Positions 3,701 to 64,000 of a stretch of 64,000 nt of DNA are shown here, piece after piece; position 1 is the stretch's first letter; each line of letters opens with the position of its first letter. The DNA lies in assembly GCA_905178155.1 (NCBI GenBank), contig CAJINV010000010.1, positions 2,996,587 to 3,060,586 of the forward strand, read 5' to 3'. The DNA comes from Amoebophrya sp. A120 (taxonomy: Eukaryota > Protista > Dinoflagellata). The notes under the pieces are model-generated. The model was not told the origin of the DNA, did not search any database, and saw only the letters and a program-made list of their open reading frames with translations. The position numbers and the translations under genes were made by a program.

Positions 3701-4785
3701 TTCTCGACGAGCTGATGGAAGGACAGCACGGCGTTGTACGGCTCGACGACGGTATCAGACACCTTCGGGGACGGGATCACGGAGTAGGTGGACATGATAC
3801 GATCCGGGTACTCCTCACGGATCTTGGAGATCAGGAGCGTTCCCATACCGGAACCGGTACCACCACCCAAGGAGTGGACCAGCTGGAAGCCCTGCGGTAT
3901 GGAAGGAAAAACGCGCTTGTCCGTTGTGATCGATTTGCTTTACTTTTCCATCATGCCGACCGAAAGCAAATTCAAATCGCTCATGCACAACCAACGTTCG
4001 TAGCGAAAAGCATCCTATTCCTGGCGACAAAAGCTTCAAATCACAAACACAACCAGTTCGCTCGGATCGAAACTGATCAATTCGACATGCACGTCACCAA
4101 CTCGAGGAAACTCACCATGACACAACACGCACTTACAAATCTAAACCGACACGCGCTTTCCAACAATTTCATATGGAGGCAGTCGCAGCCCTCAGCCTCC
4201 TTCCGGACAACGTCCAACACGGAGTCGATGAGCTCGGCACCCTCGGTGTAGTGACCCTTGGCCCAGTTGTTACCGGCACCGGTCTGACCGAACACGAAGT
4301 TGTCCGGGCGGAAGAGCTGACCGAAGGGTCCGGCACGCACGGAGTCCATGGTACCCGGCTCCAAGTCCATCAGGACGGCGCGGGGCACGTAGCGACCACC
4401 GGTGGCCTCGTTGAAGTACACGTTGATGCGCTCCAACTGCAAGTCGGAGTCACCATGGTAGGTACCGGTGGGGTCAATACCTGTGTGAAGTGATGATTAC
4501 CATTCGAAGTTGAAATTTTTAAATTGCACTGTTTCTAGTCGGTGTCCAAAATGCAGCTGCTATTTGATGTGCATGACAACCTCAGCGTAATATGAGGCAC
4601 ACGAAAGCGAACTACCACAAACTCCAACTCATCTATCATGTTCTGCATAGACATTAGAGTTCAACACGTTGATCACAAGCACGAAAAAACAGCTATATAC
4701 CGTGCTCATCGGCGATGACCTCCCAGAACTTGGCACCGATCTGGTTGCCGCACTGGCCTCCCTGGATGTGGACCAACTCACGCAT
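751..4785 (-). CDS. TUBB: beta-tubulin, 4 exons (4785-4701, 4480-4174, 3892-3508, 1320-751)
   Basis: Joined exons give [24 protein letters not shown]..., [16 protein letters not shown] and an acidic tail. Introns 1 (4481-4700) and 3 (1321-3507) are GT-AG; intron 2 is non-canonical. Confidence 0.97.
1496..3451. mobile_element. non-autonomous piggyBac-like element inside beta-tubulin intron 3
   Basis: TTAA at 1492-1495 and 3452-3455. Imperfect ~70-bp TIRs: left CTCTAGACTGCGCGGGC...CAATTTCAAACGAATTTCAAA, right (reverse complement) CGCTGGACCGCACGGCC...CAATTTCAAACTACTTTCAAA. No transposase ORF. Confidence 0.7.
2191..2420. repeat. 30-bp minisatellite (CAATTTCAAAACGTCATCAAGCATTTTGGC)n
   Basis: Four identical units at 2281-2400 plus degenerate flanking units. 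Confidence 0.95.
3898..4173. mobile_element. introner-like non-canonical intron (singleton, degenerate TIR) in beta-tubulin
   Basis: TATGG...TCATA with flanks TGCGG/TGGAG. Removal restores the conserved CDCLQGFQ. Confidence 0.85.
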
Positions 4786-5977
4786 TTTTGATGATTGTCT
4801 TCTCTCACCAAAAAAAAGTTTCCGCTAAGGAAGGTTTTGGGTTGAAGTTGATTTTTTGCCTGACCGTAGTTGAGTAGAGTTTTGTGTACGTCCTCTTGTC
4901 TGATTTGCAATGAAATCTAAACGTACCTCAGGTATGTATCCGCACTGCTCAGCAAATCTAAACGTACCTCAGCACCTTCATTTACGCTTTCTCTATGTCT
5001 TTGTACGCAACACCAACGCACAGCGGACGACTCGACGGAACGCTCAATTTCTAAAACGCTGGACCGGAAGTTGGTCTCAGTGTCGCGTGCCGTGTATCTT
5101 TTTCACGAAGTACTTTCACAGGACGTGATACACCAATTATCTTTATCTGATTTCTTGTGGACGAAAAATGTTCTTTAGTCGTACTACACGAGAAATGTTT
5201 TCTGACTCACGTCAACGTTGCCTTTCCAAATCCAATTCGCACGAACTGTTGCTCCTTACGAACGTCACGTAGCTCGGAACACTCTTCTTTAAGTGAAGCT
5301 ACGCAGTCAATTTCAACGAGAACGACAATGATGCGCAACGCATCAGCCTTTTTTGTTTTTCGCTTTTTATAAATAATTCTGCATATTATATATGGGGTTG
5401 TGTTTTGACAGCGTGAGTTCGAGATGTTGCTGCGTGTGGAAGACAACGCAGGCTGTGTTTTTATATTCTTCTCTTTGCATTTTGGCAACCAGCAAATTTT
5501 AGTGTAGGTAAAGCAAGAGCAAATAAACCAAGATTCTTTCTAAGTACTTACTTAACACTCGACACATGTCTGTGACTGATCGAAGCTAGTAACTTTACAT
5601 TTGTTCTTGAGTGACCAATCATTCCAAACATAATCTTCTCATGCTAGTGTGAGGAAACATCTGCTGCAACTACCACCAAAATCATGAAAAGTAATCGCGA
5701 AACTTTAAATTTCATTTCCATAGAAGAACATGTGACTAGTAATATACCTTTTTCATACACTTGTTTCTTCGGACGCAGTAATTTAGTTTACGCAGCTTTT
5801 TTAAACCCGCACTGGCGCTTACCGTACCACGCCCGGATTCCTCTTTAGTACACACTGTTGAAGATCTACTCGTTTCCCGTACGAAGATATCACCGCTGCA
5901 AGAACGCCACTTGTGAAAACGGCGTCCACTCAGCCAATCGCAACTTTGCTTCCGACAAGCCCCTCCGCATCTTCTTT

Positions 5978-61164: not shown

Positions 61165-64000
61165 TCACAGACTCCACCCCCTCTCCCTTAGCATCTCCCT
61201 GCATTTCTCGTTATTTCTGATCAGCGGCGCCATGGATTGGTATCTATCCTGTGCAAAAGTATCGTACTCGTACTAATCGCAGTCATGCAAGACAGATTTC
61301 TTTTATTTTCAAGCTAAATCAGCATGACAAATTCCATTTCTCTTCCTGAGCTAATTTGTATTGCAATCCTACGAGTACGATACTTTTGCAGTTCATAGTA
61401 TCCCTCGCGTTCCAATTTCAGAATGGAGTACTTCAACAGTTCCCAATCAAACTCTGTGAACAAGTCCCACTTCTCCTTCAACGGTAACCCCAGGCACGTT
61501 TTCTCGCTATCGACCCCGTGTAGCAGGGTATGGAGCATGTATTCCGGGTCTTCCGGGCAGTTCGACGTCGTGTGGTGGTACTTGCACTGCTTTGTAGTCG
61601 ACGTTTTTGTATCTTCCCTATCCGCGCCGCCGCCGGCCATCTTTTTCAGTGGTATTAACCCGTAGCTCGTTCGCAACAAGCGGTTGTGCAACCCGCCGAA
61701 ATGTTCCTCTTCCATTTCTGGATCCGGTGTAGAGATGAAACAGACACGGTTGGTCCTGTTGATTTTTACCTGCGGGTCTACTTGATGATGCACCGTGGCA
61801 GAGGGCGCATGATCCGGATTTCTTGTTTCATAGGTAGAGTTGGAACTTGTATCCAAATCGCTGGACGGATATGTTGATGGAGACGGAGGTCCTGATGTTG
61901 AAAACGCTTGTGGGCGGGAGTTCAGCGTGCTGCCTGTTGTTTTGCGCGGCCCGTACCTGTCGAAGATGGTGCTTTTCATGCCCGATGGAGTCAACACGTC
62001 GCGAGGACTCCTTTCATCCTTGTTCATGTTCTGCTGTTCCTCTTCGTCTACTTCACCGCCTCCCCGGCGCGCCCCTGTAGTGGTCCTCCACTCCTTCCTC
62101 GCATACTCCTCCAGAGTCTCCGCTACGTCTGCGGTCCGCCGAAAATGCTTCGGGTTTTTGAATATCAACGTGTAAAAATGTCTGGGTCTGGAAGATTGCA
62201 ACTTGTCATGCTAAATCTATAGCATGCAAAAATCTGCGTTGCATGATTGCCAAAAGCCGTCCAGTTTTGGCCAACTCTGGAAGTAGTTTCTCATGCAGGA
62301 TAAGCATTAGAAAGGTCTCGCAGAATCTGTCATGCTAGGTCCTGCATTCCAGACCTTATGGGTCATGGAAAAGCAGCATGACAAGTCGCGCATTCTTCCA
62401 GACCCAGACATTTTTGCAGTTGATATTGAACATTTTGATCAAGTTTTTCGGCCCCGTTTGCAGGTCCTCTTCCTCGAAGCAAACTTGCGTGTTGGGAACG
62501 TACGCGTAGTCTTGTAAAAGGTTGTAGTTTGATGTGCTGTTCTTGATAATGGAGGAGGTACTTTCATTTTCATCTTGTGATGCTGATCCTGGATAAGAAT
62601 TTAATGGCGAGGGCGTGGTGGAGCTCGTGCTGGACGGCGGCGACTGATGATCCTCATCCTTCTTCTTCCCACTGTCCACTTCCGCTTGAAAATCATCCGC
62701 ACCAGCTGTTTTATCATCACCAGGATTTGTTGCGCCTTTATCTGATGAAGCAGTAGAAGATGCGACGTGTTTGATCAACACATGCACGTGCAAAAAGTAA
62801 TCCTTGGTCCACAAAAATCCGTAATCCCCCGTCCAGGGATGGGCATGCTGCTCCCAGTAGTGCCGGGGGTCCCAGGGGAAGAGTTCAAAACTCGTGTTGT
62901 GTCCCGTGGTGGTGTCGTTCGGGTTCTTCTCCTATCCTGTGCAAAAGTATCGTACTTGTAGTAATCGCAATCATGCATTACAAATCTCTTTCCCAAGGCA
63001 AATCGGCATGACAAATTCCATTTGTAATGCTGAGCGAATTTGTATTGCAATTGCTACTAGTACGATACTTTTGCAATTCATATCTCCCACGTTTCCACCA
63101 CGTGTTTGTGCTGAACCGCATAATTCGAGGGTACCCGCTTACACCCGAAGCTATCGTACCCCGCGACCCCCTCCAAAATGCTGTCCCAGCGACGACCTTC
63201 CGGGCGGAAAAACCGCATTTTCAGGTAGTTGTGCTTCTTTTTCTGGGCAGAGGAAGAAGCTGCACCAGACGAACTGGACGACGATGGCATTGCGTCAGCT
63301 TCCGCTCCGTAATTGCCGTTACTGGTGCTAGTACTACCCGTGCTAGCCAAAAACTCGCTTTCTGACTGCGGTTCGCTATCGCTGTCACTGTTTAAACCGT
63401 AGCCACGTAGTTTGAAGCCTCCTTGTTCCTGCTCGTGGTCGTTTCCATGATATGCCTGTTGTTTCATTGCGGATTCGAACCTGTTGAGTTCTTCATCGTG
63501 ATCGTCTACGTCTTGTTCTTCCGGAGGCTCCTCGTCCCCAACATCGGCGGCCTGGGCTCGTTCTTTCGGATTCTTAAACCCGTAGCTTTCCAGTACCTCT
63601 TCCACCCTTTTCACCGTCACTCCGTCAACATCCAACCCGTTCGCCCCGACGTCTAGCATCCGCCCCACCTGCAACAAAGGCTCGGGCGAATACACCATCA
63701 GCGTGAATAAAGACGCGGGTACCGCGCCTTTTTCCGGGTTGCCGACGAGCCAGTGGGAGTTTTTCTTCGTGTAGTACGGGAGGATAATTTCGTCCACAAA
63801 AGTGCACGCGAAGCCGTTGGTGAAAAACAACGATTCGAGTTTTTTCAGCTTCTGCAAGTAATCCTTCTCCGAGTCAAACACGACAAACACGTCGACATCT
63901 TCCCCCGCCGGCACTTTCTCGTCCTCGCGCTGCTCCGCCTGGCCATCATTGTGGACCCGGAATTTCTGTTGGTAAAAATTCCGGTTCAGCGCTTCGCTTC
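61165..64000 (-). CDS. hypothetical protein, 5'-partial (weak LicD/nucleotidyltransferase-like motifs)
   Basis: ORFs join in frame across three introners. EDVDVFVV and PEDPEYMLHTLLHG are only suggestive of function. Confidence 0.6.
61245..61397. mobile_element. introner family A (F)
   Basis: TSD GTATC. Confidence 0.9.
62163..62425. mobile_element. introner family B
   Basis: TSD TTGAA. Confidence 0.9.
62933..63082. mobile_element. introner family A (F)
   Basis: TSD TCTCC. Confidence 0.92.

Follow-up and report, generated by a model that had tools for sequence, protein, structure and literature searches.

Transposon-derived introns of Amoebophrya sp. A120 leave the message as element plus five nucleotides, with a likely fixed cut register and possibly through a divergent spliceosome

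The window (the whole 64,000-nt stretch of contig CAJINV010000010.1 analysed here) encodes a protein 100% identical to one listed under Amoebophrya sp. A120, and between 3898 and 63082 its minus-strand genes carry 36 inverted-repeat elements of 139–304 bp. Our catalogue reproduces the number of elements, the families and the tally of perfect 5-bp direct repeats (26/36) given in a preliminary description of this DNA. There are 20 elements of family A, nine of B, two each of C and D, one of E, and two singletons; with families of 20 and nine members within 64 kb, these are repeated elements. The first singleton (3898..4173) lies in a beta-tubulin gene and has three of five bases matching in its direct repeat (CTCCA/CCGCA in the transcript direction), while the second, for which the preliminary description left no coordinates, is our guess at 61529..61832, with a weak terminal inverted repeat and one matching base of five.

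Perfect 5-bp repeats flank the family A elements at 8446..8595, 8713..8870, 19987..20125, 21920..22078, 23002..23158, 32956..33123, 36505..36656, 42206..42355, 45355..45504, 45657..45802, 54956..55105 (in a Ras-family gene), 59229..59384, 61245..61397 and 62933..63082; four of five bases match at 20180..20328, 23200..23376, 27603..27758, 51432..51595 and 55204..55359, and three at 20478..20625. In family B the repeat is perfect at 15825..16103, 21604..21865, 27839..28095, 33199..33450, 46027..46290, 46617..46867 and 62163..62425, with four matches at 39518..39769 and three at 23446..23709. It is also perfect in families C (44766..45009, in a GT47 gene, and 52459..52700), D (9024..9188 and 55452..55605) and E (39255..39463). 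Direct repeats of 3, 4 or 6–10 bp are perfect in none of the 36, and those of 1 and 2 bp in six and three, respectively. The ends are exactly TAT...ATA in 34 elements, as had been described for nearly all of them, the exceptions being 8446, which starts AAT (the last base of its downstream arm is mutated), and 54956, which ends GTA (its upstream arm begins TAC). The window contains 24 TAT..ATA pairs that combine an inverted-repeat score of at least 7 with a perfect 5-bp repeat; none of 20 shuffles contains one. When related loci are included, the perfect repeat is found in 338 of 431 elements, and both orientations occur (40:32 in family A, 22:14 in family B).

The inverted repeats had been thought unrelated between families beyond their first bases. 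This does not hold: arm position 4 is G or C in 71 of the 72 window arms, and positions 11–14 are A in 63, 63, 70 and 57 of them, so that the families have TAT[GC]…AAAA in common.

These elements are the already published transposon-derived introns of Amoebophrya sp. A120. Passages of Farhat 2021 (PMC7789003) describe introners of mean length about 240 nt with TAT + 7 nt + AAA repeats, direct repeats of 3–5 nt (5 bp in the legend of Fig. S19), non-GT-AG splicing and a hairpin model, and the window elements share with them TAT followed by seven variable nucleotides and at least three A, a direct repeat, non-GT-AG ends, splicing and repetition. Its Fig. 3 legend treats the intron border as unknown, and its text speaks against transposases as the general means of mobilisation. 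Part of the supplement of Gozashti 2025 (PMC12130899) likewise gives '5-bp TSD, TA/TA termini'. The elements and the element+5 rule are thus in print; what is new here is the likely placement of the cut sites and the likely removal by a relaxed spliceosome. The passages of PMC7789003 contain neither the register 4|1 nor a direction-specific conservation of U+2, A+3 and A-7, both discussed below; Figs S19–S25 of that paper may bear on them.

As to how the elements spread, the same part of PMC12130899 describes A120 family 38 as having TA..TA ends, a 5-bp TSD and an integrase-like ORF, its ORFs showing Copia/Gypsy-like similarity. The paper places A120 introners in a variety of TE classes. Unlike this ORF-bearing family, the window elements, at only 139–304 bp, are too short to encode a transposase. 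Their TA..TA ends with terminal inverted repeats are like those of IS3EU/GingerRoot, which, in the parts of PMC6839031 and PMC10045372 concerned, have integrase/IS3-like DDE enzymes, as does IS481EU, with its TNT..AYA ends. The duplication differs, 5 bp here versus 6 bp in GingerRoot/IS3EU and about 4, 15 or 25 bp in IS481EU, and a 6-bp TSD was seen in 0/36 window elements and 0/486 short pairs in related loci. The long TAT...ATA elements carrying a transposase ORF that the preliminary description envisaged did not appear: no transposase family was recognised in 145 of 172 long ORFs, the sequence of a relative covering 555 kb, nor a transposase in eight long TAT..ATA pairs of 417–1104 bp, two of which had their ORFs read and gave no obvious coding frame. 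Orphan family-A arms had no long partner but for one unconfirmed distant match, the family A and B inverted-repeat patterns gave 0 matches in viral contigs, and an Rfam search gave no match. A single transposase type mobilising all families, as had been supposed, is plausible from the ends and 5-bp duplication shared across 29 families in the related lineage, although no such enzyme was found. In bins with elements the summed DNA contig depth is thousands-fold higher, in keeping with their repetition in the genome.

The message lacks exactly the element plus 5 nt. An RNA-like contig misses 157 nt at the 36505 element (152+5), and another gap, of 1356 nt, is accounted for by five elements, 25 nt and two further introns, of 144 and 168 nt, with GT-AG ends. 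RNA-like contig and annotated protein both attest to removal at 21604, 21920, 23002 and 23200. Annotated proteins show exact element+5 removal at 13 of the 14 elements that they span, among them 19987 and 20180 in P0001, 27839 in P0005, and 61245, 62163 and 62933 in P0002; for the 13 elements in the first 20 kb the junctions are supported by reading frames and annotation. From the raw RNA, runs X21 and X22 contributed 7 and 4 mapped reads, too few for any heterogeneity of splicing to show. The element+5 rule of the preliminary description is thereby borne out, but its extension to all 36 as introns is doubtful at one place. At 61529–61832 the frame is open throughout and P0002 includes its translation; with a direct repeat matching at one base of five, this element is a doubtful intron and may not be an intron at all. 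The elements differ from U2-type spliceosomal introns in that, across all six registers, just one of the 36, the element at 45657, can be read with GT-AG or GC-AG ends.

Where the cuts fall within the duplication is concealed by perfect repeats, and mismatches at 20180, 23200, 51432 and 55204, being synonymous in the likely frame, are uninformative. Two mismatched duplications bracket the site. At 23446 the RNA-like contig piece starts at 23709 and P0001 fits only registers 4–5 (the register being the number of duplicated nucleotides kept on the upstream exon), so that at least 4 nt are retained (inferred intron 23442–23710); at 27603 the contig piece ends at 27598 and P0005 fits 0–4 but not 5, so that at most 4 nt are retained (inferred intron 27599–27759). 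It follows that four nucleotides stay upstream and one downstream, the 4|1 register resting on these two junctions, whose contig and annotation evidence may share the same RNA. This puts the likely cuts 1 nt ahead of the element and 4 nt past its end, giving an intron N-TAT...ATA-NNNN.

Every informative junction is compatible with register 4. At 20478, P0001 fits registers 2–5 only, so that two or more nucleotides of the repeat stay on the upstream exon. In the related lineage, registers 0–3 create a stop codon at L073:4518 (weakly oriented) and registers 0–1 at L065:6789; a weak comparison with A120 orthologs gives a register of at most 4 at L058:5001 and at least 2 at L058:3298. At the beta-tubulin junction of the 3898 element, Leu rather than Pro is presumably the conserved residue, which gives a register of at least 2 at the protein level. 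A junction at L058 was discarded as a register-fixing site, having been a mis-paired inner repeat; the duplication of the true element is perfect.

We therefore regard as very improbable a register that is not fixed, with cuts sliding within the duplication or using nearby cryptic GT/GC-AG sites. In its favour, the published Table S4 shows a great variety of splice-site pairs for A120, and perfect duplications would hide such sliding; against it, beyond the agreement of the informative junctions on register 4, removal is exactly element+5 at 13/13 spliced annotated junctions, and GT-AG or GC-AG is possible in only 13 of 205 intact oriented elements, besides the single window case.

The terminal bases are not conserved evenly. 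Among 229 oriented elements, from the window and from the related lineage, in which strands were inferred from ORFs and not from RNA, deviations at terminal positions 1/2/3 number 2/1/9 in the upstream arm versus 8/5/1 in the downstream arm (exact p=0.002), an asymmetry that was noticed post hoc and comes from 24 elements, mostly of the related lineage. Dropping one dubious call gives p 0.0018, restricting the set to perfect repeats 0.028, and orienting whole elements 0.018; single positions give 0.11, 0.22 and 0.02. Arm positions 8–14 show no comparable skew, and whether position 4 is G or C does not depend on direction (p 0.25). The spared bases are U+2, A+3 and the A at -7. Of 23 terminal deviations, 17 break the base pair, and wobble pairing would predict the reverse direction at positions 2 and 3; three clear exceptions read as a GC donor, a GT donor and a GT-AG in another register. 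The terminal TAT/ATA thus appears to be kept by base identity and transcript direction, not by pairing. G at +1 is not enriched (59 of 225 oriented elements), and neither is AG at -2/-1 (21 observed, 21.1 expected).

The preliminary description had the excision machinery read a hairpin with a 5-nt stagger instead of bases. There is indeed a 5-nt offset, divided 1+4, but the bases appear to be conserved by identity and direction. In this light we consider rather unlikely, if still a serious contender, a spliceosome-independent endonuclease that reads the inverted-repeat stem, leaves a 1-nt 5' and a 4-nt 3' overhang and acts with a ligase, as proposed for Euglena. The absence of signal at +1, -1 and -2, the tolerance of either orientation, the strong hairpin of young copies (z -4.85 against shuffles for the 27603 element) and the U1 snRNA undetected in A120 in the passages of PMC7789003 would all suit such an enzyme, as would the geometry of Euglena nonconventional introns, which, in parts of PMC12501133, carry a paired motif set back from either cut, by more on the 3' side (3 and 5–6 nt, against 1 and 4 here), and leave as circles, not lariats; a MITE origin is proposed there and the machinery is given as unknown. 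Those introns, however, have a CAG/CTG motif and a purine at the exon start, and their signature N3-CDG...CHG-N5-6|R is not that of the window elements, which end N-TAT...ATA-N4. Moreover, conservation does not follow terminal pairing, the sparing is direction-specific, and shuffled versions of the tubulin element at 3898 fold as well as the element itself (z -0.01). These observations only weaken the stem-reading enzyme, since a protein could read U+2, A+3 and A-7 asymmetrically.

With U+2, A+3 and A-7 spared rather than base pairing, the terminal asymmetry speaks more for a spliceosome that has given up G+1 and AG than for a pure hairpin cutter. Under such a model, a transposase cutting with a 5-nt stagger would place a non-autonomous element into coding DNA in either orientation; element+5 nt, as observed, leaves the message, the upstream exon keeping 4 nt of the duplication and the downstream exon 1 nt. 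The terminal TA would serve as donor +2/+3, with +1 free; the A of the ATA at the opposite end, 7 nt before the 3' cut, would be the candidate branch nucleotide; and the inverted repeat might draw the ends together, substituting for the missing AG and U1 recognition. We put forward tentatively, as something short of an even chance, that a spliceosome without G+1/AG requirements uses the palindromic end twice, as donor TA and as branch A-7, in which case any TAT-ended transposon duplicating 5 bp would be a perfect intron at any site and in any orientation. The broader reading, in which published A120 introners are removed as element+5, likely in a fixed register, likely by a divergent spliceosome reading U+2/A+3, and in which an integrase-like DDE enzyme is the likely agent of their spread, we hold with confidence evenly balanced against doubt.

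Several observations bear on this spliceosomal model. In the yeast P complex, A51 of U6 pairs with U+2, and in Yarrowia the branch motif lies only 2 nt from AG. Conversely, yeast exon ligation requires G+1 and AG, U6 binding would require the stem to melt, and the bases preceding A-7 do not fit the U2 branch motif. This last point suits a branch point deeper in the element, in the TGCA core or internal repeats, with A-7 spared for some other cause; families A and B do carry TTTTGCA 12–18 nt from the 3' cut, and the donor evidence would be the same. We judge a deeper branch improbable: the TGCA core is absent from families C, D and E and either orientation works, which leaves the shared terminal repeat as the only place for a branch.

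A spliceosome of relaxed requirements would have a counterpart in Fritillaria borealis, where, in parts of 10.1101/2025.08.15.670264 and PMC11282704, a modified U2 spliceosome removes transposon-derived introns with TIR and TSD that lack GT-AG; AG-AC/AG-AT ends are preferred there, whereas Amoebophrya elements are free at +1, -2 and -1. About 60% of the introns of this parasite are spliced without GT-AG, apparently without U1 snRNA; the literature searched, with most subscription journals outside it, contained no study of Amoebophrya splicing mechanism or lariats. The fixed 4|1 register and the three direction-specific bases yield exact predictions: a branch at -7, a donor N-U-A, and a lariat or a circle. 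If the removal is spliceosomal, the contacts G+1/G-1 and branch-A/A-2, to which the GU-AG rule is commonly traced, would be dispensable for exon ligation, and a transposon would have a route to become harmless wherever it lands. The spared U+2 and A+3 also match the donor bases of this genome's GT-AG introns, the canonical donors in the window reading GTA in 7 of 8 and GTAT in 5 of 8.

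A scan of the window for TAT...ATA pairs bearing inverted ends, and then a BLAST search by family, located 36 elements of 139–304 bp distributed from 3898 to 63082, with the same family counts as in the preliminary description (A 20, B 9, C 2, D 2, E 1 and two singletons). The ends are exactly TAT...ATA in 34 of them and a perfect 5-bp flanking repeat accompanies 26, while perfect flanking repeats of 3, 4 or 6–10 bp are found at none (0/36); the window holds 24 pairs that combine a TIR score ≥7 with a perfect 5-bp repeat, vs 0 in each of 20 shuffles. The TIRs, described at first as unrelated between families beyond the first bases, do share a G/C at position 4 (71/72 arms) and an A-run at 11–14. 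Since the element at 61529–61832, with TIR-like ends, has a repeat matching at 1/5 positions and a wholly open frame that the annotated protein reads through, it may not be an intron. Possibly, it is an old element that is now coding sequence.

These elements belong to a real and known class, in the genome from which it was described: one exon of the window matches a protein named Amoebophrya sp. A120 at 100% identity. The rule initially proposed for them has already been published, as it is described by Farhat et al. 2021 (PMC7789003) and Gozashti et al. 2025 (PMC12130899). In the parts consulted, the former reports that more than 60% of introns are non-canonical, that A120 repeats consist of TAT, seven variable bases and at least three A, and that the direct repeats are of 3–5 nt (given as 5 bp in the legend to Fig. 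S19), with U1 snRNA undetected and the intron border left undefined.

The elements are spliced from the message. In the case of run X6, whose contigs were taken as RNA by guess ('RNA-like', with no RNA label on record), one contig skips 36500–36656, that is, 152+5 nt, and in another 754 bases stand for 2110 window bases, the missing sequence corresponding to five elements (1019), 25 further bases and two GT-AG introns (144+168); DNA contigs of run X1 extend into elements. A gap of element plus 5 nt, as predicted, is thus seen in these X6 contigs and at 13 of the 14 elements spanned by the annotated proteins P0001, P0005 and P0002, and long minus-strand frames, including the GT47, GH5 and Ras-family genes, join once this length is taken out. 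In just 1/36 elements can any register be read with GT-AG or GC-AG ends. Two raw-read RNA runs gave 7 and 4 reads mapped to the window. A GC-rich stretch at 29238–31238, amid transcribed genes, has essentially nil RNA-contig depth.

Mismatched duplications tell which repeat copy the message retains, and hence the register, namely the number of duplicated nucleotides kept on the upstream exon. At 23446–23709, the contig piece begins at 23709 and P0001 is compatible with registers 4–5 only; at 27603–27758, the contig piece stops at 27598 and P0005 is compatible with registers 0–4 only. Therefore a single register, if one holds, is 4 (4|1, one nucleotide remaining downstream). The element at 20478–20625 requires at least 2. 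Given one fixed register, the intron is N-TAT...ATA-NNNN, the contig and annotation evidence being possibly not independent. Two junctions of a related lineage weakly support register 4: at L073:4518, a weakly oriented locus, registers 0–3 create a stop codon, and at L058:5001 the A120 ortholog is compatible with register 4 or lower. The donor dinucleotides in Table S4 of Farhat et al. 2021 (PMC7789003), with T second in all nine top A120 entries and TT in all nine for A25, fit register 4 as well, a pattern that aligner bias could also produce.

That lineage, Amoebophrya-like and recovered in a metagenome scan as 160 loci (L001–L160, mostly JACKZZ01 contigs), has an ortholog 79% identical to A120 and carries 29 element families. 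The families of the window occur there at up to 95% identity, along with about 20 more. The elements are thus not restricted to the A120 assembly. Perfect 5-bp repeats flank 338/431 elements, window included. Insertion phase is uneven: of 225 oriented elements (window and related loci), 99, 67 and 59 fall at the respective codon positions. An intergenic repeat at 17790–18516, with an internal 147-nt direct repeat and no TAT..ATA call, is not an introner; it recurs at L058:9671–10154 and L061:17–261, with 76–88% identity between window and related lineage.

Terminal bases appear to be conserved according to transcript direction. Among 229 unique elements, orientable in 45/161 sequences with strands inferred from ORFs, 24 deviate from TAT/ATA, the deviations at positions 1/2/3 being 2/1/9 in the upstream arm vs 8/5/1 in the downstream arm (exact p=0.002; single-position p 0.11, 0.22 and 0.02), in a test designed after the data were seen and with shared ancestry of some copies possible. 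Without one dubious call (L029) the counts are 1/1/8 vs 7/5/1 (p=0.0018); with perfect repeats only, p=0.028, and with element-level orientation, p=0.018. Arm positions 8–14 show no such skew. As a transposase would be expected to treat both ends equally, the skew suggests selection at the RNA level. Under register 4, U+2, A+3 and A-7 are the bases spared, the relaxed ones being their pairing partners; pairing is lost in 17/23 terminal changes, and at positions 2 and 3 a tolerance of wobble pairs would predict the opposite skew. Of the three clear exceptions, one can be read as a GC donor, one as a GT donor and one, in a different register, as a GT-AG intron. Neither G at +1 (59/225 oriented elements) nor AG at -2/-1 (21 observed vs 21.1 expected) is favoured. 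In the literature searched, neither the 4|1 register nor direction-specific conservation found a match; the figures in the supplement of Farhat et al. and two files of Gozashti et al. may bear on this. The register and the skew together make the splicing question directly testable.

Of the window's canonical donors, 7/8 begin with GTA and 5/8 with GTAT, so that N-TAT may be regarded as a canonical donor with +1 freed. In the sources as consulted, U6 A51 pairs with U+2 in the yeast P complex, AG being docked by G+1 and the branch A (10.1101/212811), branch-to-AG spacing goes down to 2 nt in Yarrowia (PMC2483917), and TIR-derived introns of Fritillaria are taken out by a modified U2 spliceosome. 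For these reasons a divergent spliceosome is the preferred reading, at roughly even odds, A-7 being the candidate branch; against it, A-7 lacks a U2-type context, AG is missing and the stem has to melt. The main rival, an endonuclease/ligase that recognises structure, as has been proposed for Euglena, is possible but less probable. Euglena introns, as far as the accounts consulted go, have 3-nt and 5–6-nt spacers around a paired motif and form circles. Here, young copies fold strongly (z -4.85), the beta-tubulin copy (3898–4173) folds no better than shuffles (z -0.01), and elements occur in both orientations.

Regarding mobilisation, the common ends and uniform 5-bp duplication suggest that one class of enzyme might mobilise all families, as anticipated; the enzyme itself was not found, either among 145 of the 172 long ORFs in related loci, in two long TAT...ATA copies there, or in an element pattern search of viral contigs. 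Gozashti et al. 2025 (PMC12130899), in the part consulted, give one A120 family the label 'Ginger, 5-bp TSD, TA/TA Termini' and an integrase-like similarity. According to the descriptions available, TA..TA and TNT..AYA ends mark IS3EU/GingerRoot and IS481EU, respectively, so the elements would resemble both groups in their working; the GingerRoot TSD is of 6 bp, which sets the elements apart from it. Long copies at L041:6184–6998, L040:3670–4291 and L009:505–1608 (815, 622 and 1104 bp) have perfect 5-bp duplications; the first, which carries the ends of family C, is close in length to published family 38 (808 bp).

The beta-tubulin gene is apparently also split by a 2187-nt GT-AG intron (1321–3507, minus strand), containing GC-rich sequence and a 30-bp tandem array of 5.6 copies at 2253–2421, which far exceeds the other introns of the window in length.
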